Below are positions 7,732 to 64,000 of a stretch of DNA of 64,000 bases, in pieces. The DNA is taken from NCBI GenBank assembly GCA_965207895.1, contig CBDBNN010000001.1, positions 182,312 through 246,311 on the forward strand, given 5' to 3'. The notes beneath the pieces are model-generated. The model worked only from the letters and a program-made list of their open reading frames with translations. It was not told the DNA's origin and ran no database searches. Position 1 is the stretch's first letter, and every line of letters starts with the position of its first letter. The position numbers and the translations under genes were made by a program. This stretch comes from Dehalococcoidia bacterium (GTDB lineage Bacteria > Chloroflexota > Dehalococcoidia > UBA6926).

Positions 7732-8367
7732 CTAACTCTTGAATCCGGGATCCTCGCCCTCTTCCATCATCGTCAACGCGCGCTCGGCAACCTGCTTGAA
7801 CACGTCATACGGCTGCGCGCCGACAAAGAAGAAGCGCCCGATAACGTATGCGGGAATCCCCGTGACGCCGATGTTCAGCGCGTCCTGGTATTGCCGCTCA
7901 ACCTCTTCCTTATACGTGCGATCCTCAATGTGCTTGTGGAGTGTCGACCAATCAAGCCCGACTTCCTCTGCGATGGGCTTGAGATTCTCTACCACGCCGA
8001 GGTCAACACCGTCACCCCAATAGGCGCGGTACGCGGCCTCGTGAAACGCCTCGCCGACACCTGCCTGCTTGGCGGCCTCCGTCGCCTCCAACGCGAGCCG
8101 CGTATACGGAACACGCTCGGGCCTGTTCATCACGATGCCCGCCGCCTCCGCAGCCTGCTGCACGGGCGAGTTCGGGTTGTTGTAACGCTCTGGGCGCGGG
8201 ATGCCTTCAGGCGGCAAATCCGGGCGCAGGAAGAACGCGCGATAGTCAATCTCGACGTTGAAGTCCTGCTTCAGCTTATCGACCCGATCCTGGCCGATGT
8301 AGCACCACGGTCAAATATAGTCGTACCAGACCGTGACCGGTAATATGACGCCGGATGCGGTTGCCAT
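7732..8367 (-). CDS. DsbA/FrnE-like thiol-disulfide oxidoreductase with in-frame TGA at the first CxxC position (selenoprotein candidate or pseudogene)
   Basis: The ATG at 8367 opens MATASGVILPVTVWYDYI-[TGA at 8313-8311]-PWCYIGQDRVDKL, continuing in frame for 193 codons to the stop at 7732. The context matches the DsbA/FrnE dvvCPWCyiG active site with U in place of the first Cys. Confidence 0.55.
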
Positions 8368-8595
8368 GTCAAACTCCCATCAGCTCAATGGAACTAACGC
8401 CACTATACTCTACACGTCGACTCATTTGACCCACATGCAAGAGCGCAAAGTAGTCTCATATTCGGGTATCCGTCTCGCGCCCTGCCCTCTATACGGGTAC
8501 AATGACATGGAGTGACTGACATGATTGACGTTAGATAGGGAGAATTGAAGCTCGGCATTCTCCCAGCGAGCAGCAATTGAGGCAGGTGAGACTTA

Positions 8596-10086
<1,491 letters not shown>

Positions 10087-10120: not shown

Positions 10121-11473
10121 ATGACCACTACAAACCCGCTCGAAACATACGTCACGGATTTCGCGGACGCCGCCCGGGACTACCAGGCCGCGCGCGCAGG
10201 CAGAGACCCCGAATGGATAGCAGACATCCGCGCCGAGGCGTTGGACAGCTTCCAGAAACTGGGCCTCCCCATCACCCGCCGCGGCAACGAAGAGTACAAA
10301 TACACGGATATCCGTCCCCTCGTCCGACAAGGATTCTCACCGATCCAGGTCATCGACCGCGACAATGCGGTTGCGGCATCCGATGCCGACCTCGATGCGC
10401 TCCAAATCGGTCCATCGGATTGGCATCGGGTTGTTATTGTCGACGGCCGACTCGCCCCTGAGCTTTCATCAGCTCCGGACAGCTTGTCGGACGGAGTCGT
10501 CGTCAGCAGCCTTGCAGAGGGTGTGCATTCCGACGGTGATGCCGTCCGTGCCCATCTGGCCCGCCTTGCAGACTACACGGAACACGGCTTTACGGCGCTC
10601 AACACTGCCCTCGCCGCCGAAGGCGCGCTTATCCTGATCCGGCGCATGGCTACCGTTGAACAGCCCATCCAGGTTGTATACGTCTCCACGGAGCAGACGA
10701 GCGGAACGGCCTCCATGCCCCGTACCCTGGTCGTCGCCGGAGAGGACAGTTCCGCAGCAATTGTGGAAACGCATGTCTCAATGGCTGACGACGCGCACCT
10801 CACGAACGCCGTCACTGAAATCGTCGTTGGCGCCGGGGCGAATATCTCCTACTGCAAGATCCAGCAGGAGAGCGAGGCCACCTACAACGTTTCAACCACG
10901 CTGGTTGAGGTCAACGAAAACGCGAATTTCCGTTCAATGGCCATTGACATCGGCGGACGCCTTACCCGCAACAACCTGACCATCATCATGGCCGGCGAAG
11001 GAGGCAATAGCGATGTCCGAGGCGCATACGTCATCTCCCGTGATCAGCACGTGGACAATCAGGTCATCGTCGACCACGTGGTTGGTCATAACGATATGAA
11101 CGAGATTTACAAGGGAATCCTGGACGGGCACGCTCGCTCCGTCTTTCACGGCAGCATCATTGTCCGTCCAAACGCCGCCAAAGTGAACGCCATGCAGGTA
11201 GACAAGAACCTGTTGCTGTCCAATGACGCGGAGGCGGACACCAAGCCTGCTTTTTGGATTTATTGCGATGACGTCCGCTGTGGACACGGCGCGGCCTGCG
11301 GCAATCTTGACGAGGATGCGATGTTCTACCTCCGGAGCCGCGGCATCGAGGAAGAAGAAGCACGGATGATGCTCATTCGAGCCTTCGTCTCCGAGGTCGT
11401 GGATGCCATCCAGGAGCCCTCCATTCACGACCACGTGGCCGCGCTCATCGCCACGAAACTGGATAATCTTTAG
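10121..11473 (+). CDS. sufD: Fe-S cluster assembly protein SufD
   Basis: 450 aa with the SufD beta-helix C-terminus (NNLTIIMAGEGGNSDVRGAYV...FWIYCDDVRCGHGAACG). Immediately follows sufB, with no sufC between. Confidence 0.85.
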   Translation: MTTTNPLETYVTDFADAARDYQAARAGRDPEWIADIRAEALDSFQKLGLPITRRGNEEYKYTDIRPLVRQGFSPIQVIDRDNAVAASDADLDALQIGPSDWHRVVIVDGRLAPELSSAPDSLSDGVVVSSLAEGVHSDGDAVRAHLARLADYTEHGFTALNTALAAEGALILIRRMATVEQPIQVVYVSTEQTSGTASMPRTLVVAGEDSSAAIVETHVSMADDAHLTNAVTEIVVGAGANISYCKIQQESEATYNVSTTLVEVNENANFRSMAIDIGGRLTRNNLTIIMAGEGGNSDVRGAYVISRDQHVDNQVIVDHVVGHNDMNEIYKGILDGHARSVFHGSIIVRPNAAKVNAMQVDKNLLLSNDAEADTKPAFWIYCDDVRCGHGAACGNLDEDAMFYLRSRGIEEEEARMMLIRAFVSEVVDAIQEPSIHDHVAALIATKLDNL

Positions 11474-11547: not shown

Positions 11548-12696
11548 ATGACCACAGATTCTGCGCCGCTCCGTATTGCCGTCATCGGGTCAACAGGCTC
11601 GCTCGGCCAGATTGTTCTTTCCGTCGCTCGCTCACTTGGTGACAACGTCCGCATCGTAGGCCTCGCGGCAGGCTCAAATCTTGAGCGCCTTGCCGAACAG
11701 ATCCAGGAATACCACCCGACCCTGGCCGGTTTTGCACGTGGACGATGGCGCGACGATGTCCCGGAGGGCGTGGAATTCAAGTCCATCAATGACATCGTCA
11801 CCTCACCGGACGTTGACATGGTAATCATCGCGAACGTGGGGCGCGCAAGCCTGGAAGCTGCGTGGGCGGCCATTGACGCGGGTAAGCGCGTCGCTATGGG
11901 CAACATCGACACACTCTATATCGCCGGCGCACTACTCACTCGCCGCGCCAAAGAGACCGGCGCAACCATCTTTCCCCTTGATGACGAACCCATCGGTGTC
12001 TGGCAAACGCTGTGGGGAGAAAGCTCAGAGTCCGTCCGGCAGGTCACCATGACGTCAACGTGGGGCACCGTGCAGGCGCGCCGCCTCCCCCGCCACGGCA
12101 CGCAGATGCCGGCCGGCATGGAGGCGCCCCGGCCCGCTCGCGCAGTGGGACGAAAGCGCTCGATTGACGCCTCAACCCTCATGGTCAAGGCAACGCAGGT
12201 GGCGGTTGTCAACGCCCTTTATGACATCCCTCTGGAAAACATCAATGTCCTCTTCCATCCCCAGGGCCTCGTCCGCGCGCTGACCGAATTCAAGGACGGA
12301 TCGGTCAAGTCTGCCCTCTTCATCCCGGACATGCGCGTCCCCGTCCAGCTCTCTTTGGCGTACCCAAACCGATGGGCGAACGCGGAGATCAACCGTGTGG
12401 ACCTGCTCGCAGAGGGCCGCCTCTCTTTTGAGCCGCTGGAACATGAGCTTTTCCCCTGCTATCAGATCGCTATCGAGGCGGCGCGACAGGGCGACACATA
12501 TCCGGCGGTTGTGGCCGCAGCCAATGACGCCGCAATCGAGCTATTCATTTCTCAGCAGATCGGCCTCACAGATATTCCCAAGATCATTGATCGCGCCGCG
12601 AACGCCCATCGCCCGCAGCCCCTCGATGACCGCGCGAGCATCATTGAAGCAATGGACTGGGCCAAGACGTACGTCGGCGGCCAGGTACAGGACTGA
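11548..12696 (+). CDS. DXR-like protein (1-deoxy-D-xylulose-5-phosphate reductoisomerase family, catalytic motifs divergent)
   Basis: IAVIGSTGSLG N-terminus, the ...GRKRSIDASTLMVKA... segment and FPCYQIAIEAARQG...AANDAAIELFISQQIGLTDI all parallel Dxr. The conserved NKES, DSEH and SGGPF-type motifs are replaced. Confidence 0.65.
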   Translation: MTTDSAPLRIAVIGSTGSLGQIVLSVARSLGDNVRIVGLAAGSNLERLAEQIQEYHPTLAGFARGRWRDDVPEGVEFKSINDIVTSPDVDMVIIANVGRASLEAAWAAIDAGKRVAMGNIDTLYIAGALLTRRAKETGATIFPLDDEPIGVWQTLWGESSESVRQVTMTSTWGTVQARRLPRHGTQMPAGMEAPRPARAVGRKRSIDASTLMVKATQVAVVNALYDIPLENINVLFHPQGLVRALTEFKDGSVKSALFIPDMRVPVQLSLAYPNRWANAEINRVDLLAEGRLSFEPLEHELFPCYQIAIEAARQGDTYPAVVAAANDAAIELFISQQIGLTDIPKIIDRAANAHRPQPLDDRASIIEAMDWAKTYVGGQVQD

Positions 12697-12756
12697 TTGT
12701 CGAACCGCAGCCGTTTTCATCCGGAAACTATCACTGACCAAACTGCCGGAGGACGA

Positions 12757-14607
12757 ATGAAACCTTGGCGAGCCATTACGGTCGCCCTACTCGCCGTGGC
12801 ACTCGCTGCCGCGTCAATCGCGTGCGAAGACGAAGAGGAGACCCAACCCACGGTTCAGCCGGTCCCGACCCCGGTTCTCTCAATACCCACCGCCACTCCC
12901 CCAACGGCCACGCCCACTCCACCCACCGCTACTCCTGTACCGTCGCCGACGCACACGCCCGATATCATCACACCTACTCCGCAGCCTGAGCAGGAAGTCT
13001 TGACTATCCTCTATTGGCAAGCTCCAACCCTGCCGTTCCCCTACCAATCGTCAGGCAGCAAGGATCGCGACGCCGGGGCGATAGTGCTTGAGTCTCTCGC
13101 TGTCATAGACCCCGATGGCAACGTCGTCCCGAAAATCGCCGCGGAGATTCCCTCTCGTGAGAACGGGGGCATCTCGGAAGACGGCCTCACTATCACGTGG
13201 AGGTTGCGTGAGAATCTCACTTGGTCGGACGGCAGCCCGCTAACCGCCAATGACGTCGTCTTTACCTGGCGTTACTGCACAACCGACGAGATCGGCTGCC
13301 TCGCCCTCAACACATTCGAGCGGTTTATGTCCGTTACAGCACTAAATGATCGCGAAGTTCTGCTCACGCTCGATAAAGCGGAGCCTCGCCCTGAGCTGCT
13401 GCTGGCCGGCACAGACGTGCCTATCATCAGTGAGGCCCAATTCGCAGAGTGCCTCGCCGGAGACCCACCCAACTGCGATGACGAACATCTCATGCCCATC
13501 GGGTCAGGCCCCTACCGCGTCGTCGAGACTATCCCAAATGAGCGTATCGTCTATGAGCGCAATCCTCACTATTGGGGCGGCATACCGCATTTCGACCGCG
13601 TTGACCTGATAGGCGGCGGTGACGCAGAGTCAAACGCGCAAGCCGCTCTCGTCGAAGGAACGGCGGACTACGCCTGGAACCTGCAGGTAACTCCGGATGA
13701 CTTGAATGAATGGCAGGCTAATGGGATCGGCGAAGTCATCACGGCCTTTGCCAGTGATGTTGAACGCATTGTCGTCAATCAAACGAATCCTCACACGGAG
13801 AATGAAGAGCATCGCTCAGAGTACCTGGGTGGCGACAATCCTCATCCATACCTGACAGTCACGGCCATTCGACAGGCCATGTCCATGGCCATCGACCGGC
13901 AACGCATCGTCGACGATTTCTACGGCTCTGCGGGCGTGGCAACGTGCAATCTCGTAGCTGCGCCGGCGCGGTTTGTCTCCGACCTCAACGACGGCTGTCT
14001 CACGCAGGACATCGAGGGCGCAAAGGCCCTGCTCGACGAGAATGGCGTCGTCGATACTGACGGTGACGGCGTCCGCGAATACAAAGGCGTGGCACTCACG
14101 CTCACCTACCAGACGACAGCCAATGCCGTTCGTGAGGGCACCTTCGCGTTGATCCAGGGCTGGTGGGCCGAAATCGGCATCGATGGCACACTGATCACGC
14201 ACGATGCCAGCATCTTCTTCGGTCCGGCCGAGCACACGGAGTCATACCGTCGCTTCCTGGCGGACGTCCAGATGTACACAACCGGCTCCGGCCTTGATCC
14301 CCAGGGCTATCTGTCTTCATACCAATGCAACCATATCCAGTCTCGCGAGAATATGTGGGCCGAAGACAACAACGCCCGCGTATGCAGCCAGGCCTACGAC
14401 TGGGTTTTCAGCCAACTGGAAGCTGCCGGCAGCGAAACGGAGCGGGAAGCCGCAATTCGCGCTCTCAACGATGCCATCGTGGTCAACGCCTACGAGATCC
14501 CCCTCGTGCTTCGCGGCTTTGTCTCTGCAAAGGCAATCGACTTGCACGGTGTTCGCATGAATGCGTGGGACAGTGAGCTCTGGAACATCGCAGAGTGGCA
14601 TCGCTAG
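12757..14607 (+). CDS. ABC transporter substrate-binding lipoprotein (family 5, peptide/nickel-type)
   Basis: The ATG at 12757 is preceded by GGAGGA. Lipoprotein signal MKPWRAITVALLAVALAAASIAC, a Thr/Pro-rich linker, then an SBP_bac_5-like body. Confidence 0.75.
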   Translation: MKPWRAITVALLAVALAAASIACEDEEETQPTVQPVPTPVLSIPTATPPTATPTPPTATPVPSPTHTPDIITPTPQPEQEVLTILYWQAPTLPFPYQSSGSKDRDAGAIVLESLAVIDPDGNVVPKIAAEIPSRENGGISEDGLTITWRLRENLTWSDGSPLTANDVVFTWRYCTTDEIGCLALNTFERFMSVTALNDREVLLTLDKAEPRPELLLAGTDVPIISEAQFAECLAGDPPNCDDEHLMPIGSGPYRVVETIPNERIVYERNPHYWGGIPHFDRVDLIGGGDAESNAQAALVEGTADYAWNLQVTPDDLNEWQANGIGEVITAFASDVERIVVNQTNPHTENEEHRSEYLGGDNPHPYLTVTAIRQAMSMAIDRQRIVDDFYGSAGVATCNLVAAPARFVSDLNDGCLTQDIEGAKALLDENGVVDTDGDGVREYKGVALTLTYQTTANAVREGTFALIQGWWAEIGIDGTLITHDASIFFGPAEHTESYRRFLADVQMYTTGSGLDPQGYLSSYQCNHIQSRENMWAEDNNARVCSQAYDWVFSQLEAAGSETEREAAIRALNDAIVVNAYEIPLVLRGFVSAKAIDLHGVRMNAWDSELWNIAEWHR

Positions 14608-17623: not shown

Positions 17624-17695
17624 GGCAACGTAGCTCAGCGGCAGAGCGGGCGCTTCATAAGCGCTAGGTCACAGGTTCGAATCCTGTCGTTGCCA
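17624..17695 (+). tRNA. tRNA-Met (anticodon CAT; elongator-type or possibly tRNA-Ile2)
   Basis: Cloverleaf by hand: acceptor GGCAACG/CGTTGCC, D-stem GCTC/GAGC, anticodon stem GGCGC/GCGCT with loop TTCATAA, T-arm ACAGG-TTCGAAT-CCTGT, and G1-C72. Confidence 0.8.
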
Positions 17696-17742
17696 CCGGC
17701 CGCATTCATAGAGCGGCGCGCGTGCCGGAGGGTGGCAAACGG

Positions 17743-17819
17743 GGGCGGTTAGCTCAGCTGGTTAGAGCGCTTCCTTCACACGGAAGAGGTCACAGGTTCG
17801 AGTCCTGTATCGCCCACCA
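17743..17819 (+). tRNA. tRNA-Val (anticodon CAC)
   Basis: Acceptor GGGCGGT/ATCGCCC, D-arm GCTC-AGCTGGTTA-GAGC, anticodon stem CTTCC/GGAAG with loop TTCACAC, T-arm ACAGG-TTCGAGT-CCTGT, and an encoded CCA. Confidence 0.85.
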
Positions 17820-19396
17820 TTTTTGACGGTAGACAGAACCGAGCCGTTCAGGGCCATCTCCTCGGCGTTTCTCCCTCCTACCGGTCCATCCTGAGGCATG
17901 GGGATGGTGTACCGGAGGAGGGCGTTGTCGGGCATGACGACGATCTCCTTGACGAAAGACTCGATGAAGGCCCTGCGCTCGGTCAGTTCGCTCTCCTTCA
18001 GGAACTCGCTCATGTCCTGGGCATAGGTGGCGATGGTTTCCACGTCGTCCAAAACCTCCCTGCGCTGGGAGAGGATGGTCCTGGCCTCGGCCGCCGAGTC
18101 CTCAAGGCGCTGTTGACGCTCCCGGTGCTCCCTGATGCGTTCCGAGGCGTCGGCCATGTCGAGGTCGGTGTTCTCCACCAGGTGCCAGACGCGGCCCAGC
18201 TTGCGCTTGACCTCATCAAGCTCGGCCTCGATGGTCTCCAGCCGTTTGCGCTGCTCCGCTGCCACCCCGTCCATCTCCTCGTCCACGATCTTGACCAGTT
18301 CGGTGATGTTGGACTCGGTGAGGACGTTCTCCCGTATCCTCTCCACCACCATCTCCTCGAAGCGTCGTGCGTTGAGCCTGGGGGTCGTGCAAGCGTTCTT
18401 GCCCCGCTTCATGATGGACTGGCAGACGTAGTAGGCGAACTGGCCGCTCTTGGCGTCCTGGCCTGAGAGCGCCCTGTTGCAGGACTTGCACCTGACCAGC
18501 CCGCTGAGCAGGTAGGAGCTTCCCACCCTGCGAGGGTGCGTCCTCTTCGGCGCGCGGGAGCGCATGAGCCGCTTGACGCGGTTGAATTGGGCCTTGGAGA
18601 CGACGGCGGGGAACGCCTTCTCTATGCGTACGGGGTCGGACTTGACCTTCCCTGTAGTGCCCCAGAGCAGCGTGCCCGTGTAGACCTCGTTTCTGAGGAT
18701 GAAGTGGACGCCGTTCTTGGACCAGAGCTTGCCGGTGGCGCTGGCGATGCCCTCTGAGTTGAGTGTGCGGGTGATTTCGGTCATCCCGGTGGCCGACTCG
18801 GCCATGTCGAAGATGCGCTTGACGACGGGAGCAGTGTCAGGGTCGATCTCCAGTGTGGGCCGCTTCTTGGCTCCGTCCTGCACCATGACGCGGTTGTAGC
18901 CGTAGGGCGTCCTGCTGGCGACCCAGAAGCCTCTGGAAGCGGCCTCCCGCATCCCACGGCGAACCTCTTCCGCAAGATTTTCCGAGTAAAACTCATCGAC
19001 GGACTCGATGATGCCCTCAAGGAGCCTGCCTGTGGCGGTGTCGTCGGCCTGCTCGGTGATGGAGACGACGCGGACGCCCTTTCGCCTGAGCATGGACTTG
19101 AAGGCGACGGCGTGCTCGCGCTTTCTGGTGAATCTACTAAATTTCCAGACAAGGATTTCTCTAAACGGGGCCTCGGGCTTGGCGGCCTCGTCGATCATCT
19201 TGCGGAACTCCGGGCGGTCGGCGACGCGCCCGCTCTCGGCCTCGTCCACGTACTCGCGGACGACCACGTAGTCGTTCTTATGGGCGTATTCCCTGAGCGC
19301 CCGCAGCTGTGCGGCCACGGACAGGTCCACGTCCTGTCTGTCGCTGGAGACCCTGGCGTAGAGGGCCACGGGGGTGTAGTCGCTTCTATTGTTCAT
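17762..19396 (-). CDS. Large serine recombinase (resolvase/invertase-type integrase)
   Basis: ALYARVSSDRQD with the catalytic Ser, a recombinase domain, a zinc ribbon (CKSCNRALSG...YYVC) and a coiled-coil tail. The start is taken at the ATG at 19396, which follows AGGAGGAGG. The 3' end overlaps tRNA-Val by about 58 nt. Confidence 0.85.
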   Translation of the reverse strand: MNNRSDYTPVALYARVSSDRQDVDLSVAAQLRALREYAHKNDYVVVREYVDEAESGRVADRPEFRKMIDEAAKPEAPFREILVWKFSRFTRKREHAVAFKSMLRRKGVRVVSITEQADDTATGRLLEGIIESVDEFYSENLAEEVRRGMREAASRGFWVASRTPYGYNRVMVQDGAKKRPTLEIDPDTAPVVKRIFDMAESATGMTEITRTLNSEGIASATGKLWSKNGVHFILRNEVYTGTLLWGTTGKVKSDPVRIEKAFPAVVSKAQFNRVKRLMRSRAPKRTHPRRVGSSYLLSGLVRCKSCNRALSGQDAKSGQFAYYVCQSIMKRGKNACTTPRLNARRFEEMVVERIRENVLTESNITELVKIVDEEMDGVAAEQRKRLETIEAELDEVKRKLGRVWHLVENTDLDMADASERIREHRERQQRLEDSAAEARTILSQRREVLDDVETIATYAQDMSEFLKESELTERRAFIESFVKEIVVMPDNALLRYTIPMPQDGPVGGRNAEEMALNGSVLSTVKNGGRYRTRTCDLFRVKEAL

Positions 19397-19440
19397 CTGT
19401 GAGTCCTCCTCCTGTTTCCTGTCGTTCCCGTGGGCCACTA

Positions 19441-19800
19441 CTAGCCTGCAACACCCGGCATCGTCGTCATCGAACCCGTGTCTTCCCCAAGCGCGCTGAC
19501 CATTTCACGCGGAAGGATGCCCTCGATCTGTTCAGCCTCGGAACGCTCGGCGTGGTAGAGGTCCCAACGGAGTTGCAGGTTCATCCAAAAGCCGGGCGAA
19601 GTGCCGAAGAACCTAGAGAGCCTCAGGGCGGTGCTTGGCGTGACCCCCCGCTTCCCTCGGACGACTTCGTTGACCCTCTGATAGGGCACGTGAATGGCAT
19701 TGGACAGGTCGCGCTGAGTCATTCCGAGGGGCAGCAGGAACTCCGTCAGAAGCATCTCGCCCGGATGCGTAGGCTCTCGATCGGTGGGAATGCGTACCAT
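19441..19800 (-). CDS. higA: HigA-type antitoxin (HTH, XRE-like)
   Basis: MVRIPTDREPTHPGEMLLTEFLLPLGMTQRDLSNAIHVPYQRVNEVVRGKRGVTPSTALRLSRFFGTSPGFWMNLQ is the HigA/VapI signature. Starts 14 nt after the higB stop. Confidence 0.75.
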   Translation of the reverse strand: MVRIPTDREPTHPGEMLLTEFLLPLGMTQRDLSNAIHVPYQRVNEVVRGKRGVTPSTALRLSRFFGTSPGFWMNLQLRWDLYHAERSEAEQIEGILPREMVSALGEDTGSMTTMPGVAG

Positions 19801-19814
19801 GCTCATTCTCCTCT

Positions 19815-20108
19815 TCAGTGATAGTCGGTGATTTCGACGTCGGCGGGTCCGGCAGGTGTCCACGTGAAGCAGATTCGATACCTGTCGTTGACGCGAATAC
19901 TGTGTTGCCCGCTTCGATCTCCGGCCAGCCGTTCCAGGCGGTTGCCGGGAGGTATTCTGAGGTCTCCCAGAACGGAGGCGGAATCGATCTGGTCAAGCTT
20001 TCGATGAGCCACTCCCCATATCGGCATGGGACATGCCCGCAGGGCCGCTTGAGTGGATTGCCCGTTGAAGATGTCCTCTGTACCGCCGTCTCTGAATGAG
20101 ACAATCAT
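19815..20108 (-). CDS. higB: HigB toxin (RelE/ParE superfamily)
   Basis: MIVSFRDGGTEDIFNG...HRKLDQIDSA...NRLERLAGDRSGQHSIRVNDRYRICF is the HigB killer-protein pattern. Confidence 0.75.
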   Translation of the reverse strand: MIVSFRDGGTEDIFNGQSTQAALRACPMPIWGVAHRKLDQIDSASVLGDLRIPPGNRLERLAGDRSGQHSIRVNDRYRICFTWTPAGPADVEITDYH

Positions 20109-20589
20109 AAGTACATAATAGCACGGCTTTCGTGCTATGCCAAGATGCTAGCTTCACGCGGCCATCTCCAACGAGTCTGCCGGGGACAAGGTTGGGCGGG
20201 ACGTTCACCGCCTGCCCTCGCCGTCATCCTCTGAGTGAGCCGCGTTCCTGCGCATGTGGGCGCGGACGGCGACCTTGGCCAGGATGCGCAGCCCCTTGCG
20301 TATCGTCCTCCGCTGCTGAGGAGTATAGGACTCCATCGGCCTGTCGGAGGATGACTCGGGAGCATCCCTCCCCAGCCTCTTCTTTTGCCGGTTCCTCGTA
20401 TCTTCTCTATTGGTGTCTTTCATGTTGCCTAATCTCAGCGGCGGTTCGTTGGGCCGCTGGCCTCTCGTTACAGGTGTATTGGGTGGCCGCCGGGCACGGA
20501 CGGATGGGTGCGAGCGCCCGGCGGCGTTGTGGTGTCCTACCCCGCCGCGCCGCCGATGCGCCGGTTAGGGCGCCGGCGGGGGGTGCCGG

Positions 20590-20880
20590 CTAGCTCCTGA
20601 AGTGGGTCATCCGTAGCTCCTCCCCCAGGAGGATCGGAAGGCATCCGATGCGGTTGGCGAAGATGACCAAGGTGAGCATGGAGCCTCCGCTGGGCGCCCA
20701 GCCCTTGAGCCACCTTCGCAGCAGCTTGTAGTCGATGCCGGTGACCCTGCACAGGCCGCGCCAGGAGAGGCCGCTGGCCTCCTTGAGGCGCACGAGCCGC
20801 TGGGGGAAGTCCTCGGGCATGTCGGCGCCCTGAAGGGGCTCCATCTCGCTCCATCCGTCGATGTGATCGATGTTGGTCAT
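20590..20880 (-). CDS. Small HTH DNA-binding protein (possible excisionase/regulator)
   Basis: The internal ATG at 20880 gives a 96-aa protein with an HTH-like segment LVRLKEASGLSWRGLCRVTGIDYKLLRRWL. The N-terminal extension in the track ORF is low-complexity. Confidence 0.45.
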   Translation of the reverse strand: MTNIDHIDGWSEMEPLQGADMPEDFPQRLVRLKEASGLSWRGLCRVTGIDYKLLRRWLKGWAPSGGSMLTLVIFANRIGCLPILLGEELRMTHFRS

Positions 20881-21202
20881 GTCTATCCTCCATGTCGTAA
20901 AGCTTTGGGTTGTTGTTCCCAAGGCCATGTGCATCCGGCGGCGGATGCGACCGGAGGGCGGTCGCTCCCCACGCGCCGACTTCGACATGGGACCGGGTCT
21001 GTCTGTATCGACCCCGGCGGGCCGGTTCCGGGAGGTGATCACCGAAGTGAGCCGTCTCCCAGGGCCGCCGCGTCGAGCCGGACGGCGCTCCGTCCTCCGC
21101 TCCTCCGGGGGCCTCTTGCTATATCGTTATCCGGTGAACGCATCGGCTTTCCATCTCCTATCGGGTATTGAGCGGGAGTTTTCGCGACGCTCCCTGCGTC
21201 GT

Positions 21203-22864
21203 TCATTTCGCTTCCGTCGGCAGGGACTGGGGCGGCTCCCAGGCGGCGTCCGGGGTGCGCCAGGCGCGTCCCAGCGGTCCCAGGGAGTCGATGGCTTCTT
21301 TGTGGGAGACCCACAGGGGGACCGTGACCCGGCTGGCCTGCATCCGCTCCCGCGCCACGCGCAGGAAGTGGGTGGCGGCGATGTCGTCGTCGAAGACGAT
21401 GAGCACGTCGGGTCTGGCCCCGTGATCGTCCATGGGCCTGTGGGACGAGTAGTAGCGCAGATAGGGGGCGAGGCGCGTCGCCATCGTCGAGGGACGCACG
21501 GCGCGTCGCTCCCACTCCAGGAAGAAGGCCCACGTCTCTTCGCCCCTGCGCAGGACGCCGAAGGCGTCGGGGTAGACGGCGCGCAACCGTTCGTCGTGGC
21601 GGAAGTGGCGGGACGCCCTCCTGGGCGGGTCGAGCTGCGCTATCTCCCATCCCAGGTGCCGGGCCTGGCTCGCAAGCGCGGACAGAAAGACGTGGACGGC
21701 CTCGGTGTGCTCGATGTTCCTGAGAAGCTGGCGGCTCCTGCTGCCGGTGAGGTTGCGCCACTCGAAAGGCCCTTTGGCGTCCTCCGGGGCGACGCTCAAT
21801 CTCCTCCTCGCCGCCGCCACCGAGGTCCTGTCCCTGCGGGCGAGGAGGGCCAGTCCCCGGTCGGTGAGGGCCAGCCGTCCCTCCGCTTCGCGGGGCCTGA
21901 CGACGAGGCTGAAGCCCTCCAGTGGATTGATCAGCTGCGAGGCCCGCTGGGGCGATACTTCCAACAGACCGGCGAGTTCGCCGAGGGCGATCCAGGGCCA
22001 GTCGAATACCAGGTCGAGGGCGCGCTTCTCGGCGGGTCTGAGCGTCACGGGCAGCATGTGGTCGGCCATGTCGGCTACCGTTCCCATGACGGGCAGGTCT
22101 GCGGGGACCGACGCCAGTCCGGGATGCGGCTCCCCCGGAAACGCGCCGCCGGGGTCGGTCCTGTCCAGCGCATAGCGCAGGCTCACGGCTGCGTGGACCT
22201 GGGCCGGAGTCCAGATCGGGGCGTCTACGTCGGCCATGACCGTCTCGCGTTCGACGGCCAGGAGGGACGGAACGTCTGTGGTCGAGAGCATCCTGCGGGC
22301 GTGCCTGAGACGGACGGCGTCCGTCGTGAGGACGAGGACGACTCCGGGCATGGGTTCGTCCTTCAGTCGCCAGAGGCGCTGGGCGAAGACCGAGCGGTCG
22401 GCGGTGGGTCCCTGCCTCACGATGCCGACGGTCCTGCCGTCGGGAAGTTCTATACCCGCGTCCAGCTTGGATGAGCGGTACCAGCGGAAACGCAGGGGGT
22501 AGGCAACGTCGGAAGCGAGAGATGCGACGTGGTATATGGAAGCCAGGGCGTCCATGCGCTCCATCAGGCTTCGCCGCCACTCGGCGGAGACGGGGTGTGT
22601 ACGCACCAGGTCGTCAAGCGACATCCCGTCCCCATCTGCAAGCCTGCGCAGCCCCGCCCCGGTGAGGTGGAACCTCCGGGAGGGTGGAAAGGGATCGACG
22701 GCGTGGAGCACGGAGTCGCAGAGGCCGTCTGCCTGAAGTCTCTCCACGGCCTCGTGGACCGCGCCCTTGGACCGGCCCGTGACCGGGACCATCTCCCGGC
22801 GATTGAGGTAGGGCATGTCGGCCAGGATGCGGATGATCTGAGCTTCCAGTCCCGCGGGTCTCAT
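21203..22864 (-). CDS. Replication-relaxation (Replic_Relax) family protein, tandem two-module form
   Basis: The C-terminal half (HTEAVHVFL...RPDAFGVLRRGEETWAFFLEWERRA) matches the Replic_Relax pattern and the N-terminal half repeats it more weakly. GAGGAGG RBS. The start overlaps the T4CP stop (ATGA). Confidence 0.65.
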   Translation of the reverse strand: MRPAGLEAQIIRILADMPYLNRREMVPVTGRSKGAVHEAVERLQADGLCDSVLHAVDPFPPSRRFHLTGAGLRRLADGDGMSLDDLVRTHPVSAEWRRSLMERMDALASIYHVASLASDVAYPLRFRWYRSSKLDAGIELPDGRTVGIVRQGPTADRSVFAQRLWRLKDEPMPGVVLVLTTDAVRLRHARRMLSTTDVPSLLAVERETVMADVDAPIWTPAQVHAAVSLRYALDRTDPGGAFPGEPHPGLASVPADLPVMGTVADMADHMLPVTLRPAEKRALDLVFDWPWIALGELAGLLEVSPQRASQLINPLEGFSLVVRPREAEGRLALTDRGLALLARRDRTSVAAARRRLSVAPEDAKGPFEWRNLTGSRSRQLLRNIEHTEAVHVFLSALASQARHLGWEIAQLDPPRRASRHFRHDERLRAVYPDAFGVLRRGEETWAFFLEWERRAVRPSTMATRLAPYLRYYSSHRPMDDHGARPDVLIVFDDDIAATHFLRVARERMQASRVTVPLWVSHKEAIDSLGPLGRAWRTPDAAWEPPQSLPTEAK

Positions 22865-25394
22865 TCTCCGACCTCCTCGTCCTCTTCGTCGGTGTGGTTC
22901 TCGGTCGCCTGCTCGTCGTTCTCCTCCCGTTCGGCCTGCTCCAATGCCTCGACGCCTTTGTGAAATTCGTCCACCTTCCCGTGGCCCTCGGCGTCGGCGT
23001 AGTCTCCCTGGCGGGCCGAGACGGTGTAGCCTTGCGTAGCTGCACGTATGCGGTCGGCGACCGATGGGTCTCCTTCCTCAGGCTTGCGCACCTCCATCGA
23101 GAAGGCGGGCATCCGCTCGGTGCCCACGGTGGCGCGGACGTAGCAGTGGTGCACGGGCAGGGACACGACGTCGTCCTCGGACACCCGGTCCTTGCCAAGC
23201 TCCCACACCAGGGTCCTGGCGTCTGAGCCGGCCACCTGGAAGACGGCGAGGCAGCCGACGTTTGCGAGGATGGTGTCCCGCATGGTGCGGGAGAGGTCGT
23301 CCAGCTTGGCCAGGCTCTGTGTCGCCAGGATGAAGGACGCTCCGAACTTCCCAAGCTCCGACAACATCGACTCGTAGTCCACGCCGGGCATGGACTGCAT
23401 CTCGTCCACGACGACCAGCGCGCCGCGACGTTCCCTGAGAGATAGACTTCCCTGCTCCCGTATCACGGCGTCCACCAGGTTCAGGAGCGACGCGCCCACC
23501 AGGGCGGCCACGTCCCTGCCCACCGTTCCCTGGGAGGTGGAGACCAGCAGCACGCCGCCGTCGTGGATGGTCCTTCTCAGGTCGATGGTGGAGCGGCGCT
23601 GTCCCAGGATGGCCCTGGCCCGCTTGGACGATGCGTAGTAGGAGAGACGGGTCTGGACGGGGGCCAGGGCCTCCGCCTTGTACTGGCGGCCCCACTTGCC
23701 GAAGTCCCTGGCCCACCACTCCAGCAGGTAGGGGTCGGAGACCCTCTTGCGCACCTGCTTGGCGAACTCATCGTCCGAGAGCAGCTTCAGGCCGTCGAGG
23801 ATGGTGTACTGCTGTTCGGCCTCCATCTGCTCGTTGGCCTCGTGCAGCGTCTTGACGGTCTGTTCCAGGATCGACTGCATCCTCGGCCCCCACTGGTCCC
23901 AGAGGCCCTTGGCCACCCGCACCACCGAGTCGGCGGTGCGGTCCCGGTCTGCGAATACGCGGGTGTCCAGCAGATTGACGCCGGGGGAACGGCTCGCGTC
24001 CGACAGGTCTATCAGCCTCACCCTGTCGGCTATCTCCTCGGGGACGTGTTCGAGGATGCCCGCCACCAGGTCGGTGTGGGGGTCGATGACGACGATGGCG
24101 TCTTCGTCCCTGCCCGCCGCCTTCTCCCGCATCTTGTGGGCGACCACGTGGTGCATCAGCGTGGACTTGCCCATGCGGGTGCGGGCCACGTAGAGGTGGT
24201 GACGGCGCAGCAGGTCGTCGGGGAATCTGATCTCCCTCTTGGTACCCGCCGTGGTGTCGCCCACCAGCGCGCCGCCCCTGACTCCCTTCGCCGACGGGCT
24301 GAGCGCCCGTGCGCCGGACCGCTCCACCAACGGCGTCTCGTTCCCCGCTCCCGGCGGGTGCCAGAGGCAGGCGGCCTCCCGGACTCCCAACACGCTGCGC
24401 CTGCCGAACAGGCCGGGGCCTGTGGGATGCAGGTTCGTCCGGGGTCGGGAGCGACGGGCCTTACCTTGCTCACCTTGAACCTCGCCCCTGCCGGGTTGTC
24501 GAAGTGCCGGTAGGCGGCGGCAACCCTCCTCATGAGCTCCTCGGCCCGCTCGCGCCCCGTGTCGTCCGGCATGATCGCCGTGACCCGTATCTCGGCGTCG
24601 AAGGCGATGCGGGAGACCTTCTCCCTGATGAGCAGGGGGTCTTCGACCCGGTTCCTCGCCTTCTTGAAGCGGTGCCATGCCCAGCCACCGATGCCAAGCC
24701 CCAGGGCCGTTCCGATGCCAAGCAGCACCGTCTTCCACGTCTCGCCGTCCTGCACCCACAGGTAGCCCTGGAGGGCTGCGAGAGCGCCGACGCCGAGGAC
24801 GGCCATGGTCACCCCGTCCATCTGGAGGGGCTTGGTTTGGTAGGTGTAGGACGGCTCCCGCTGCTCCTGGCCGGGCCGCTTGTGGGCCTTCTCCATGTGG
24901 TGCTGGGACCAGTCGGGGCCGAGGGAGTTCAGCTTGAGTTGAGCCACCACGCGCTCCCCCTCGTAGAGGGACGACAGCGCGCCCATGAGGGCAATCAGAG
25001 GGTCGGAGCCGGGGTCGAGCAGGTCGTCGTCGCGGAAGGTGCGCAGGGGGACATACTCGGGGCCGTCGGCCCTGAGCGTCATCGACCATGCCTGCTCCCC
25101 CTCCCTTAGCCACAGCGGGTCTTCCCAGGGATGCACCTCCTGTATGCGGGCCTGGGGATAGTGGGCGGCGATCTGGCCGCGTACCACCCGGTCGTCGATG
25201 CAGCGGGCCATCAGCGTCACGCCGTCCATGTCCCCGGCAAGCTCCAGGGAGAAGGGCTCAGGCACCGCGATTGACTGGAGGAGGTTCTCCACGCCCAGCA
25301 ACGTCCGCTCGCCCGTCCTCGGCGGCGTCACCGCAAGCAGCGCCGGGGTCTTGTCGTCGCTTCCAAATAGTTTGCGTATCGGGTTCTGTTTCAT
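22861..25394 (-). CDS. Type IV secretion coupling protein (VirD4/TraG/TraD-like), apparently frameshifted near 24.3-24.4 kb
   Basis: The N-terminal part (25394 down to about 24400: two TM helices and an all-alpha region) and the C-terminal part (about 24300 down to 22861: Walker A ARTRMGKST, VVVDEMQS, ATQSLAKLDDL TraG-D_C-like) lie in different frames. GGGAGGAG RBS before 25394. Confidence 0.6.
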
Positions 25395-25409
25395 TTCTGT
25401 TACTCCTCC

Positions 25410-27665
25410 CTACGTATGGGTCTCTTCTGCGTTCTCGCCTCTCTGTCGGTGTCCGCCCGGTCTCCACTCGATGACCTCCGTTTCCTCCGGGGTGGCCTCG
25501 ATGCGGACGGGGAAGCGGTGTCCCTTCGCCAGCAACAGTCCGTCCCCACGGGGACACGACAGCAGCCAGCGCTGGAGGTCTTCGGGCAGGTCGAAGGCGT
25601 CGCCCACGGTGCCTATGGCAGCCGCGTCCTGCTGCAAGAGCAGCTTGAAGGCGGCGTTCTGGAGAAGCGCCCTCCCCGAATGGCCGGTGATGGTCCTCGA
25701 CGAGTCCTCGGACAAAAGGTCCTGGACGTCCTGGGTGATGAACTGAAGCCCCAGCCGGTGTTTCCTGGCGCGTTTCGCCATAGACACCATGAAGGCCGCG
25801 CCCTCGGGGTGCTGCATGATGCTCCACACCTCGTCCACCACCAGCAGCCTCGGCTTGGGGTTCTGGGCGGCCGCCGCCCACACCGTCTCGGTGCAGACCA
25901 TCGCCGCAGCGGGCCTAAGCTCCGGTTCGAGGAGACGCAGGTCGAAGACGGTGACGAGTGCTTCGCTCCCCAGCAGGTCGTCCCCCTCGTCGGAGAGGAG
26001 GTTGCGGAGGCTGCCGGTGGCGAAGGGCCTCAGCAGGTGGGCTATGTCCGGGGCCTGCCCTTCCAGGTATGTGTAGAAATCACGGAAGCCTGTGCGTTCG
26101 CGGTGCTGGGCGTAGTAGCCCGCCAGGGCGTGGTCCAGGGAGGCCCTGCGCTCCGCTCCGAGACTCTCACCCACCATGACTTCAATGAGCCTTCTCAGGC
26201 TCCCGATCCTCTGGAGCAGCTCCTCGTCGTCTCCCCGGTCGATGACGAAAGGGTTCATGCCCTGGCCTTCCACTCCGGGAGACAGCACCCTGCCTCCGGC
26301 GGCGCGAGCCATGTCCGCGTACTCCCCCTCCGGGTCGATGACGTAGGCGGTGACGCCGCGCGTCAATCCCCTGAGCACTCCGAGCTTGGTTGCGAAAGAC
26401 TTGCCGCTGCCCGACCGTGCGAGGACTGCCGTGTTGGCGTTGAGATGGGTGCCGTCCCAGGGGTCGTAGACCACGGGGGAGCAGGCCCGCATGTCAACGC
26501 CGTAGAGGGTGCCGCTGCGGGTATCCAGGTCCGGCGGCGAGAAGGGGAAGAGCCGGGCCAGAGAAGACGTGTCCAGGGTCCTCCACTCGGCCACGGCGTT
26601 CAGGGCCAGGGGCAGCGTCGAGAGCAGCCCCTCGCGTTGGCGGAAGGCCAGGTTGTCCAGCTTGCCGAGAGTGGCGGCAAAATGGGCCTTGGCCCTCTGG
26701 GTCATCTCCTTCAGCGACGCCTCGTCCTTCGCGTGGAGGGTCACGGATAAAGAGGAGTGAAAGAGACGCTCACGTCCGCGCTGCACCTCGTCGCGGAGCC
26801 GGGTCACGTCTTCCAGGGCGATCTCCGCCTCGGGCGACATGGTGCGGCCACGCTTGAACGAGAGACTCTGCGCCGATTCGAACCTGACCTTCTGCCACTC
26901 CAATGTCCTGGCCGCCTGCTCGGCGGGGATCGGCCCCAGATGAATGGACAGGTCCATGGGCGCTCCCGCCGCCATCAGCCCTTGCAGGAACCCTGGGGCC
27001 AGCGATCTGGGCCACTTGCCCAGGTGAAGGGAGCGGATGAGATGCGTGCCAATGCGCATGTCGCGCCGGTTGACCTGCACCTCGATCTCTTCGTTCTCGT
27101 CCACGTCAACAGGCGAGCCACCCAGGGCTGCGGCTACAAGGAACATTCGAAGCTGCCTGCCCCTGAGGGGGTGGACGGAGAGTCCGGCCCTCGCCAGCAG
27201 GCCCCGCAGCTCGTCGATACGGGAGTGCTCGCAGACGGCGTAGAAGCGCCGGTCCAGGATGCCGTCCCGGGTCTCTAGGTCGGTGAGCAGGCGCCTGAGC
27301 GACTCCGATGCCGCTCTCGTCTGCGGCGGCAGGTCGTCGGGTTGGGCCTCTTGCAGCTTCTCACGCAGACCGCCAAGGCGCGGCGGGTGCTGGCGCATGA
27401 GCAGCTGCACCGGGAAGTCGAGGGCGTTGAGCGCCCCGGCGAAGGCCCCCAGCTTCGGCTCGTCGATCTCAAGCCCCATCACCTCGCACACTCCCATCTT
27501 CACCCCGTCCAGCCGCACGGGGCCGTCCTCCTCCAGGTGCGACAGCATGAAGAAGAAGGGCAGACCGGGCGGCGGCTTCGGAACCGGAGCGGTCCCTTCG
27601 GGCGGCGCGGCGTCCGCCGTCCGCTCCGTGTTTCGTCTCTTGATTCGTTCGAGCAGCTCTTTCAA
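25410..27665 (-). CDS. VirB4/TraE/TrsE-type conjugative transfer ATPase
   Basis: Walker A LARSGSGKSFATK and Walker B LLVVDEVWSIM. Start is placed at the TTG at 27665, 9 nt after AAGGAG. The track ORF extension is low-complexity and overlaps the upstream gene. Confidence 0.8.
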   Translation of the reverse strand: MKELLERIKRRNTERTADAAPPEGTAPVPKPPPGLPFFFMLSHLEEDGPVRLDGVKMGVCEVMGLEIDEPKLGAFAGALNALDFPVQLLMRQHPPRLGGLREKLQEAQPDDLPPQTRAASESLRRLLTDLETRDGILDRRFYAVCEHSRIDELRGLLARAGLSVHPLRGRQLRMFLVAAALGGSPVDVDENEEIEVQVNRRDMRIGTHLIRSLHLGKWPRSLAPGFLQGLMAAGAPMDLSIHLGPIPAEQAARTLEWQKVRFESAQSLSFKRGRTMSPEAEIALEDVTRLRDEVQRGRERLFHSSLSVTLHAKDEASLKEMTQRAKAHFAATLGKLDNLAFRQREGLLSTLPLALNAVAEWRTLDTSSLARLFPFSPPDLDTRSGTLYGVDMRACSPVVYDPWDGTHLNANTAVLARSGSGKSFATKLGVLRGLTRGVTAYVIDPEGEYADMARAAGGRVLSPGVEGQGMNPFVIDRGDDEELLQRIGSLRRLIEVMVGESLGAERRASLDHALAGYYAQHRERTGFRDFYTYLEGQAPDIAHLLRPFATGSLRNLLSDEGDDLLGSEALVTVFDLRLLEPELRPAAAMVCTETVWAAAAQNPKPRLLVVDEVWSIMQHPEGAAFMVSMAKRARKHRLGLQFITQDVQDLLSEDSSRTITGHSGRALLQNAAFKLLLQQDAAAIGTVGDAFDLPEDLQRWLLSCPRGDGLLLAKGHRFPVRIEATPEETEVIEWRPGGHRQRGENAEETHT

Positions 27666-27684
27666 CTCGGTTGACTCCTTCGTG

Positions 27685-28002
27685 CTAGGGGGTGGGGAAC
27701 GGGACGATGCCGCTGCGCAGCAGTGCGGCGACGGCCTTGGCCAGCAGCACCAGCACAAGGCCCACGACTGCCATGACCACTGCGGTCTTGGCCCTGCCGC
27801 CGCCACGCTCCTCCGCGCCCTCGGCCATCAGGACGAAGCCCGCCCAGACGACGGCGAAGACGGCGAGTCCGGCGGCGGCGTAGGCCATCGCGGTCAGCAC
27901 CGCGTCGAAGGCGGCCAGCATCGCCCGCTCCTCGGCCGGGGCCGCGCCGACGGTCGCCAACGCAGCCCCGGCAAGGAGGATTGCCGTCCATGCCCGTCTC
28001 AC
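27685..28002 (-). CDS. Small secreted two-helix membrane protein (VirB2/TrbC pilin-like, tentative)
   Basis: GTG start overlapping the upstream stop (GTGA). A signal-like N-terminus is followed by two hydrophobic helices. Location between the PrgI-like gene and VirB4. Confidence 0.4.
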   Translation of the reverse strand: MRRAWTAILLAGAALATVGAAPAEERAMLAAFDAVLTAMAYAAAGLAVFAVVWAGFVLMAEGAEERGGGRAKTAVVMAVVGLVLVLLAKAVAALLRSGIVPFPTP

Positions 28003-46445: not shown

Positions 46446-46468
46446 GAGAGAGAACCCCCACGAAATGC

Positions 46469-46478
46469 GGGGGGGGGG
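46469..46478. repeat. Homopolymeric G10 (C10 on the coding strand) 24-33 nt upstream of the adhesin start codon
   Basis: Sequence ...atgcGGGGGGGGGGtgaagc. On the minus strand this reads CCCCCCCCCC-gcatttcgt-GGGGG-ttctctctc-ATG. Confidence 0.6.
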
Positions 46479-46748
46479 TGAAGCTCCGCAGCGCATCAGT
46501 CATGTCGTCGAACCTCCTGTGTCGCCCGACTTATGCCGCGACGCCGTGCGGGCGCTGGATCAGTAGTATTTCTAGCTCATGTCAATATGTGTCGCAAACG
46601 ACCAGCAGATATCATCCGCCAATCTGGGGTTCGTTGTCAATGGGGTCCGGGTTGGATTGGGGACGGAAAGGGAGGGCGGAGCGCAGCAACATACCGTGTG
46701 GGGACTGGCGGACAAGGGCGACTTGGCGAGACCCCTCGGAGGCAGTCG

Positions 46749-47693: not shown

Positions 47694-48617
47694 ATGACTG
47701 CTCTTGTCCGTCAGTTCAGATTCTTCCTAAGAGATGAAGTCAACCCAAATATTGACAGGGTGCGCAGGCTGCGCTCAGGCATTAGAGGAGTTAGAGATCA
47801 CCTGCACAGAAATCTTGATGGTTTTCAAGGTATCGCTCGACAGGGCTCATTGGGCTTGGACACTTTAATCAAGCCCGTCCGGGAAGATGACGAGTACGAC
47901 GCTGATGTTCAAGTCGTCATGAACCCACAGGCCAATTGGAATCCGAGGCAATACTTGGATGCTGTATTTGAAACACTGTCGACGAGCCTAGACTATCAAG
48001 ACAAACTGGAATGCAACACACGGAGCGTGACCATCAAGTTTGCCGGGCACTTCAGTATGGATGTCGTTCCGCGTATCACCCAAGATGGCCAGCACCAAGT
48101 CTGCAATCGCAGAGATAACAGATTTGAATCAACCGATGGTATGGGCTATCACAACTGGTTCCACGAGAAGAGCAAGTTGACCAACGTCAACCTCAAGCGT
48201 GCCGTCCGGCTGTTAAAGTACATCCGCGATCGTGAGAGCAATTACAAAGCTCCGTCCATATTGCTTACAACCTTGGCGGCAAACGCCATACAGTCTGGTG
48301 ATCGTGGCAGAGACTCTGTAAAGTCAGTCGCAAGCACATTGACCACGATCCTTACAAGGATGGACAGCTATTTGCAGGGGCTCCCACGAAAACCCGCCGT
48401 CAGGAATCCTGTACTACGCTCCGAGACGTTCGACCGCCATTGGAATGATGTCCAGTTTGCGATATACAGGGAGAACATTCACCGATATGCCGAGATTGCT
48501 ACAGGAGCCTTTGCCAGTTCTTCTGTCCCGGAATCAATTGATCGTTGGAGGAGGCTCTTCGGCGAAGGTTTTGGAGGGCATTACAAGGCACCGCCTCATA
48601 GTAAGCAAAGGGTTTAA
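47694..48617 (+). CDS. SMODS / CD-NTase-like nucleotidyltransferase
   Basis: AGGAGGG RBS. Carries the nucleotidyltransferase-fold motifs QGSLGLDT (GS) ... DDEYDADVQVV (h[DE]h) ... FSMDVVP (third acidic). 307 aa with a SMODS-like C-terminal helical region (RLLKYIRD..PSILLTTL). Confidence 0.6.
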   Translation: MTALVRQFRFFLRDEVNPNIDRVRRLRSGIRGVRDHLHRNLDGFQGIARQGSLGLDTLIKPVREDDEYDADVQVVMNPQANWNPRQYLDAVFETLSTSLDYQDKLECNTRSVTIKFAGHFSMDVVPRITQDGQHQVCNRRDNRFESTDGMGYHNWFHEKSKLTNVNLKRAVRLLKYIRDRESNYKAPSILLTTLAANAIQSGDRGRDSVKSVASTLTTILTRMDSYLQGLPRKPAVRNPVLRSETFDRHWNDVQFAIYRENIHRYAEIATGAFASSSVPESIDRWRRLFGEGFGGHYKAPPHSKQRV

Positions 48618-52597: not shown

Positions 52598-52769
52598 CCT
52601 GACTTCCCCCACACCCCAGACCTGATCACTTACGGAACAGGTAACCGTTAAATCAGCTAAATGTTGATGGTCGATTTTACAGGAACGTTAAAGCAATGTA
52701 AAATCAAGTGGTGGCTTCACGCCGTTGGCCTCGTCGGATGTCTCACCTGAATGGAAGGGATGGTCGTAT

Positions 52770-56214: not shown

Positions 56215-56587
56215 CCTTTCACCTCACCCCAACGCTCTGTTTCAATCCTCAAGCGAAATACCATGAATGTCAAGAACCTTGCTCGACTATCTATGCCTTC
56301 GCAATGAAGGAGTCGGACTCACGCGGCGCGCGGGCTCACAGCCTTCTTGAGTCGCATCGCATTTTTGACAGCGTGCCCTGCTTGCCGGAGGCGCTCTCAC
56401 TCAGAATACCAGCAATCTCACTTCCTTGACACCCCTATCGACACCCCTATCCGACTCCTGCTCTCTGCGTTTTTTCATCCAAATCGAACCAGCAAAGGAA
56501 CCAGGAAACCGATCATTGCCCTGAACCTGTCCCTCCCCCCGTACACCGAGCCCGGACGTGGACTTCACATAGAAGTGCCCTGCGTCG

Positions 56588-63990: not shown

Positions 63991-64000
63991 CCTGAAAGGC

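Follow-up and report, generated by a model that had tools for sequence, protein, structure and literature searches.

A FrnE/DsbA-like gene with a conserved in-frame TGA in a Dehalococcoidia genome is a probable UxxC selenoprotein gene

We analysed a stretch of 64,000 nucleotides from a Dehalococcoidia bacterium (contig CBDBNN010000001.1 of assembly GCA_965207895.1, positions 182,312 to 246,311), hereafter called the window, with positions counted from its first letter. On its minus strand we identified an open reading frame (ORF), 8367..7732, that contains a TGA at codon 19. Judging from comparison with homologous sequences, this ORF very probably encodes a cytoplasmic selenoprotein of 211 amino acids, of the FrnE/DsbA-like UxxC type, in which selenocysteine (Sec, U) would occupy the nucleophilic position of the active site (U19-P-W-C22). 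An initial annotation of the window had proposed a selenoprotein of this kind, and the proposal is supported by the conservation of the TGA codon among homologues, by coding constraint on both sides of it, and by a downstream hairpin that resembles a bacterial Sec insertion sequence (SECIS) and carries compensatory changes in its stem.

The frame that begins at the ATG at 8367 reads MATASGVILPVTVWYDYI, then TGA (8313..8311), then PWCYIGQDRV..., and remains open for 192 sense codons until a TAG at 7734..7732, which matches the 193 further open codons given by the initial annotation when the stop is counted. With Cys placed at the TGA, the translation matches the Pfam DSBA domain (PF01323) over its full length, from residues 11-192 against profile positions 2-188 of 191 (E 1.8e-35; 122.9 bits, against a gathering cut-off of 25.6), indicating that the domain extends across the TGA. 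Among solved structures, the closest is Deinococcus radiodurans FrnE (5cnw/5cp1; E 3e-18 over residues 3-186), in which CPWCYIG aligns on U-PWCYIG and ITGVP aligns on VTGIP; residues G167, I171 and P172 in and beside this second motif are invariant in our alignment (A1). In FrnE and in the homologues P0011, P0020, P0023, P0028, L035, L090 and L091, the residue aligned with U19 is the first Cys of CPWC. The translation, the DSBA match and the FrnE alignment thus confirm that the ORF from this ATG places TGA at the first Cys of the CxxC motif. Cys22 is the only cysteine of the protein, so its redox centre would be a U19/C22 selenenylsulfide.

An in-frame TGA at 8382..8380, five codons 5’ of the ATG, makes a longer N-terminus or a signal peptide impossible, and only about 10 residues precede the first strand of the protein. 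The absence of a signal peptide indicates a cytoplasmic protein, as FrnE is, and for the same reason a periplasmic DsbA of the Escherichia coli type was ruled out.

We investigated the distribution of the TGA among homologous sequences. At the protein level, 108 relatives were identified. At the DNA level, one genome for each GTDB species was scanned, which yielded 21 orthologous loci; all belong to metagenome-assembled genomes (MAGs) of Dehalococcoidia or Chloroflexota, several of them complete chromosomes (1.6-2.4 Mb) and several with record names that indicate sponge or coral metagenomes. A metagenome scan gave 67 further loci, 53 of which contain the TGA codon position, and two Cys homologues (L090 and L091) were added through exact protein look-up. 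The initial annotation had suggested aligning orthologues to see whether they carry Cys or Sec at this site, and the outcome was TGA at 73 of 76 homologous loci and TGC at three (L035, L090 and L091), in a sample that is biased because the search motifs were derived from the Sec clade itself. TGA is found at all 21 Dehalococcoidia species loci, flanked there by LPVTVWYDYI and PWCYIGQ, and on 52 of the 53 metagenome contigs, the remaining one having TGC. The TGA forms extend down to approximately 34% identity, and among them is a divergent group at 34-39% that has UPFC or UPYC. The presence of TGA at 73 of 76 loci indicates that its position on the redox Cys codon is not a matter of chance, and the earlier argument that a coincidental mutation is not the explanation is thereby upheld.

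The same distribution bears on the possibility that a TGC or TGT was turned into TGA by an error of sequencing or assembly. Only one base separates these codons, and homologues with Cys do exist, as the three TGC loci show. The TGA was nevertheless recovered in independent assemblies from many projects and technologies, among them complete long-read chromosomes, short-read MAGs and Joint Genome Institute metagenome contigs, and we consider the chance of an error to be negligible.

Coding constraint was identified on both sides of the TGA. Among the 10 codons 5’ of it, the numbers of variable columns at codon positions 1, 2 and 3 are 3, 2 and 8 respectively, and a GGGAG or similar purine-rich motif is kept together with the start codon in most close orthologous loci. 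The predominance of third-position change and the retention of a Shine-Dalgarno-like motif and start indicate that the N-terminal segment is translated and under purifying selection, which would be sensible only if the ribosome continued past the UGA. The sequence 3’ of the TGA is likewise conserved among homologues.

In the public protein records, all relatives above approximately 55% identity are called as proteins of 131-191 amino acids (131, 143, 161, 169, 180, 183 and 191 among close homologues) that start 3’ of the TGA at inconsistent positions, whereas P0011 (51% identity) and P0020 (45%) are called at full length and carry CPWC. Truncated calls for the close relatives, combined with full-length Cys forms, are the pattern expected if gene callers stop at a Sec codon. 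Two further matches were noted in these searches. A fragment of 41 residues at L022:3516-3638 (JAPOOK010000018.1), on a second contig of the MAG APA_bin_32, has 93% identity with the C-terminal end of the DsbA-like protein, and P0094, a 254-amino-acid PanB-domain protein, matches 19% of the query at 88% identity; both suggest a partial duplicate or a chimeric gene call.

The public calls could also be taken at face value, in which case the ORF would be a pseudogene, or would yield only a truncated product. The initial annotation had put such a product at 174 amino acids, which does not hold, as the nearest canonical start codon in frame after the TGA is the TTG at 8217, giving 161 amino acids. 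All the public calls of close homologues beginning 3’ of the TGA agree with this explanation, as does the failure to find Sec machinery in 688 kb of sequence (below). A null mutation would not, however, endure as an identical TGA at 73 loci with identities of 34-98%, nor would it leave the 10 upstream codons conserved with mostly third-position change. Conservation extends to the residues that separate the TGA from the called starts (PWCYIGQDRVDKLKQDF...), the downstream ‘starts’ vary between orthologues, and a product of 161 amino acids would be without a strand, the start of a helix and the entire redox motif of the DSBA domain. Thus, truncation or loss of function is very unlikely to account for this gene.

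Support for Sec insertion at the UGA comes from a conserved RNA hairpin directly downstream (Table 1). RNAalifold was run on an ungapped alignment of 84 nucleotides (A2) containing 59 distinct homologous sequences, and gave a model of 10 pairs in which 93.2% of cells are standard pairs, compared with 13-49% when the 3’ partners were slid by 1-3 columns. Changes on both sides were found in four of the 10 pairs (43 cells; 0-10 cells in the slid versions). Column pair 33/43 changes from CG to UA in four sequences and to GC in one, pair 25/50 is CG in 29 sequences and UA in 25, and pair 24/51 is CG in 50, UA in three and UG in two. Columns 23 and 24, which are the last two bases of the Cys22 codon (G 8303 and C 8302), pair with columns 52 and 51, and make up two of the three pairs of the lower stem.

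The dimensions of the hairpin were compared with the consensus model for bacterial SECIS elements (bSECIS), which specifies an apical loop of 3-9 nucleotides, an upper stem of 4-16 bp, a UGA-to-loop distance of 16-37 nucleotides, a minimum free energy of -7.5 kcal/mol or lower, and a G as the first or second base of the loop, in most cases with G or U after it (PMC13188914). The window element, with a loop of 7 nucleotides, an upper stem of 7 bp, a spacing of 19 nucleotides and a loop that starts A-G-G, matches this model on all four counts, and its invariant loop G is nucleotide 24 when counted from the U of the UGA. The conserved hairpin has a minimum free energy of -10.4 kcal/mol, and all 59 distinct homologues pass the -7.5 threshold.

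The initial annotation had also pointed to a hairpin, CAGGAUCGGGUCGAUAAGCUG, in this region. Its start 19 nucleotides after the UGA was correct, and the structure itself (CAG-G-AUCG-GGU-CGAU-AAG-CUG; -1.7 kcal/mol) is not the functional element: its inner helix is 48.7% paired in the 59 homologues, with covariation no better than in the slid controls, and the conserved hairpin overlaps it and differs from it.

Several results weigh against a selenoprotein, and concern either the hairpin or the rest of the genome. With regard to the hairpin, single-sequence folding of the 64 nucleotides after the UGA was no better than that of shuffles (z 0.31), so the support for the structure is comparative. 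No match to an Rfam SECIS family was found in a scan of the window or in a relaxed scan of 8150-8420, the latter yielding one chance microRNA match on the other strand. In addition, a hairpin at the SECIS site is retained by L091 and L090, the two nearest homologues with Cys, which means that it is not exclusive to the TGA forms and that the Cys homologues failed as a negative control. With regard to the genome, tblastn with the E. coli K-12 proteins gave no match for selA, selB or selD in the 688 kb of the window and homologous loci, a search that is uninformative given a genome of approximately 1.9 Mb, and ARAGORN identified no tRNA-Sec in the window and 29 loci, which are likewise only part of that genome and equally uninformative. 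Finally, no second convincing selenoprotein gene was found in the window, where crude scans for TGA read-through gave 139 and then 20 candidates.

The single-sequence folding result and the hairpins of the Cys homologues would fit an explanation in which the structure reflects amino-acid conservation and codon bias, or another role of the mRNA, rather than a SECIS, with recoding brought about by something else. The stem does overlap conserved I-G and V/I-D/E codons, and about 13% of the bacterial selenoprotein genes in BSepDB are without a canonical SECIS. Synonymous change is nonetheless distributed as an RNA element would require, being frozen in the stem (third-position entropy of 0-0.12 bits at columns 30, 42 and 45, and of 0 at the loop G, column 36) and saturated in the loop (1.91 bits at column 39), with 0.2-1.8 bits outside the hairpin. 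Furthermore, the third base of a Gly codon (column 33) faces the first base of a Val codon across the stem. The Gly codon changes from GGC to GGU in exactly those sequences in which the facing base is A, for Ile, and to GGG where it is C, for Leu, so that synonymous and amino-acid changes match across the stem. AT-rich marine homologues (L020 and L025-L027) keep the GC-rich stem despite drifting flanks. Retention of a hairpin in Cys forms is the expected remnant of a recent exchange between Sec and Cys. We therefore regard an origin of the hairpin other than as a SECIS as unlikely.

The two TGC forms concerned are L091:1501-2160 (P0020) and L090:262-915 (P0011), each with a stable hairpin at the SECIS position. 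That of L091, UCGGUC[UGUCAC]GGAUCGA, has a U-A pair variant in common with the Sec forms L030-L034. From these sequences, the hairpins of L091 and L090 may be ‘fossil’ SECIS elements left by a recent Sec/Cys exchange.

The genetic code of the window was examined to determine how UGA is used elsewhere. Among 42 complete long ORFs (at least 90 amino acids), TGA stops 15, TAG 20 and TAA 7; TAG stops are unusually common, in an ORF set that is crude and includes some spurious high-GC ORFs. In the TGA-ended ORF of the ERG4/ERG24 family, the Pfam match reaches the final profile position at the last residue, and in the TGA-ended Dxr it stops 8 residues before the stop codon. As TGA ends 15 of the 42 ORFs at places where Pfam profiles end, a genome-wide reassignment of UGA is ruled out.

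Reassignment of UGA to Trp or Gly is one form of a broader explanation, in which the codon is read as a standard amino acid, the other being near-cognate read-through to Trp or Cys that is independent of a SECIS. The base after the UGA is C, a weak termination context, and no Sec machinery was found in the sequence searched. Only tRNA-Met and tRNA-Val are present in the window, and these two alone passed the Rfam gathering thresholds; Pfam scans of the window ORFs, covering all but the two giant ones (2936 and more than 2006 amino acids), identified no SelA, SelB-wing or AIRS domains. Leakiness, however, does not account for a covarying hairpin that stands at the canonical distance for a SECIS, with an invariant G in its loop and suppression of synonymous change, and the enzyme would lose its activity with Trp or Gly as the nucleophilic residue. 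Decoding of this UGA as a standard amino acid strikes us as highly improbable.

For the selenoprotein, the most likely mechanism is standard bacterial Sec insertion. Translation would start at the ATG behind the GGGAG ribosome-binding site. When the ribosome reaches the UGA at codon 19, the mRNA hairpin at 8303..8274 would present its apical loop, AGGAUCG, to which SelB-GTP-Sec-tRNA(Sec) would bind, so that Sec, instead of release factor 2, is brought into the A site; under this scheme, selA, selB, selC and selD would be present in the source genome. The product would cycle between a selenol/thiol form and a selenenylsulfide with Cys22, and by homology should reduce or isomerise disulfides of cytoplasmic substrates, as the Cys enzyme FrnE does.

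The TGA forms sampled extend from sponge- and coral-associated marine Dehalococcoidia to the metagenome contigs with UPFC or UPYC. It is a tentative possibility, suggested by this distribution, that Sec is the ancestral and nearly fixed state in this FrnE-like clade, and that rare Cys forms such as L091 are recent Sec-to-Cys reversions. If so, the clade would be one of Sec-dependent cytoplasmic disulfide oxidoreductases, and would offer a natural series for the decay of a SECIS once Sec is lost.

The value of the result is practical, in that it would correct a systematic truncation in public annotation; it reveals no new mechanism and opens no new question. Close homologues stand in public protein sets as ‘DsbA family protein’ calls without their active site, from which correct annotation would restore a selenoenzyme of 211 amino acids. 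No NCBIfam model reached its cut-off for the window protein, which may be a reason for the truncated public records. The gene would add a Sec-dependent cytoplasmic redox enzyme to the host-associated Dehalococcoidia, a lineage already reported to be rich in selenoproteins: two Dehalococcoidia MAGs, with 49 and 46 genes, are among the ten most selenoprotein-rich bacteria in BSepDB, and one of them has an isolate identifier styled like those of the relatives identified here (PMC13326102). It would also be an example of dual coding, in which the SECIS stem restricts change both in the resolving-Cys codon and at several synonymous positions.

Table 1. Coordinates of the predicted selenoprotein gene and its associated features in the window.
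Feature	Position	Strand	Basis
Predicted selenoprotein ORF, 211 codons (18 amino acids + Sec19 + 192 amino acids) and TAG stop	7732..8367	minus	translation
Shine-Dalgarno-like GGGAG, 6 nucleotides 5’ of the ATG	8374..8378	minus	read in sequence
UGA codon 19, predicted Sec codon, at the first (nucleophilic) Cys of CPWC	8311..8313	minus	TGA in 73/76 homologous loci
UGC codon 22, resolving Cys of U-P-W-C	8302..8304	minus	translation
Predicted bacterial SECIS, GCU-AC-AUCGGCC[AGGAUCG]GGUCGAU-A-AGC	8274..8303	minus	RNAalifold consensus
SECIS lower stem, 3 pairs	8303-8301 with 8276-8274	minus	
SECIS upper stem, 7 bp	8298-8292 with 8284-8278	minus	
SECIS apical loop AGGAUCG, invariant G at 8290	8291-8285	minus	
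V-T-G-I-P, residues 168-172, cis-Pro loop of the thioredoxin fold, facing the active site	7852..7866	minus	aligned to FrnE ITGVP
Intrinsic-terminator-like hairpin and T-run, 22 nucleotides 3’ of the stop codon	7686..7709	minus	consensus match only

The selenoprotein gene looks monocistronic from its sequence context. A terminator-like site follows it, of a kind that shuffles of the region give 0.9 times on average. TrkH and TrkA are encoded downstream, and SufB, SufD, Dxr and a solute-binding protein divergently upstream. The divergent genes are on the plus strand, with sufB at 8596-10086, sufD at 10121-11473 and dxr at 11548-12696, and the TGA stop of dxr abuts, in the same frame, the start of the gene of a family-5 solute-binding protein (12697-14607). 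The Cys homologues L090 and L091 adjoin trpA and a chorismate mutase gene, and since they sit beside these other genes, the neighbourhood gives no clue to function.

Further features were noted elsewhere in the window. The tRNA-Met (17624-17697) and tRNA-Val (17743-17819) genes are followed directly by a large serine recombinase ORF (17762..19438, minus) that extends over the 3’ end of the tRNA-Val and contains Resolvase, Recombinase and Zn_ribbon_recom domains. Past the recombinase are a Replic_Relax-like ORF (21203-22864), a TrwB/type IV coupling protein (T4CP)-like ORF (22861-25113) and a TraG/TraC-like ATPase (25410-27806). To judge by this gene content, 17624-27806 resembles an integrative conjugative or mobilisable element with the tRNA-Val as its insertion site. 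The same tRNA pair lies approximately 9 kb from the DsbA-like gene in the relatives L001, L003, L005 and others.

The two giant ORFs are at 37686-46496 (minus; 2936 amino acids) and 57982-64000 (plus; more than 2006 amino acids, running off the end of the window). An ORF with a SMODS (second-messenger oligonucleotide/dinucleotide synthetase) domain (47694-48617, plus; E 3e-23) and a convergent ORF of 304 amino acids with no Pfam match (48661-49575, minus) may form a defence module like the cyclic-oligonucleotide-based antiphage signalling system (CBASS). Next to these, a protein of 998 amino acids (49616-52612, minus) contains AMP-binding, PP-binding and NAD_binding_4 domains arranged as in a carboxylic-acid reductase or in a terminal reductase like that of non-ribosomal peptide synthetases. 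Finally, a collagen triple-helix repeat protein (55074-56273, minus) adjoins the ERG4/ERG24-family (sterol-reductase-like) membrane protein (56588-57760, minus), an odd pairing for a bacterium.

Selenoproteins of the DsbA-like UxxC type (COG2761) were first reported in 2005 from the Sargasso Sea metagenome, as nine sequences with a predicted SECIS (Zhang, Fomenko and Gladyshev; PMC1088965), and were later found in Anaeromyxobacter dehalogenans, Desulfovibrio desulfuricans and Desulfotomaculum reducens (PMC1794560). A survey of 2016 counted 45 such genes in 41 organisms, and a review of 2026 has an entry for ‘DsbA-like protein form 1, PF01323, UxxC’ (PMC13188914).

We compared the window gene with other known systems. 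NCBIfam NF041057 (Rcas_1661 thioredoxin-like (seleno)lipoprotein) is also a thioredoxin-fold family with Sec and Cys forms, and membership in it was rejected: the match scores 34.4 bits against a cut-off of 190 (E 1.6e-08), is confined to the C-terminal 70 residues, and is accompanied by no lipoprotein signal. The hairpin of the window gene resembles the SECIS of E. coli fdhF in lying within the coding sequence just 3’ of the UGA, in having a loop G, followed by G or U, approximately 20 nucleotides from the UGA, and in fitting the bSECIS consensus model. The key loop bases of fdhF are G23 and U24. The two elements differ in that they have no sequence similarity and in that the loop has 7 nucleotides in the window and 4 in fdhF.

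The likeness to FrnE, a cytoplasmic disulfide oxidoreductase/isomerase with a DsbA fold, extends to the active site, with its CPWCYIG context, and to the cis-Pro loop, G-[IV]-P, and neither protein has a signal peptide. FrnE differs in having Cys in place of Sec, in its length of 260 amino acids, against 211 for the window protein, and in a longer C-terminal tail. This tail contains an extra Cys pair. With the DsbA-like protein form 1 family we identified no difference in kind. A PF01323 domain, UxxC with Sec for the first Cys, widespread Cys homologues, and a SECIS hairpin directly 3’ of the UGA with a G in a small apical loop are common to both, and the group to which the window gene belongs consists of orthologues from host-associated marine Dehalococcoidia MAGs. 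The window gene thus shares every tested feature of the DsbA-like UxxC family, and is an added member of this established family.

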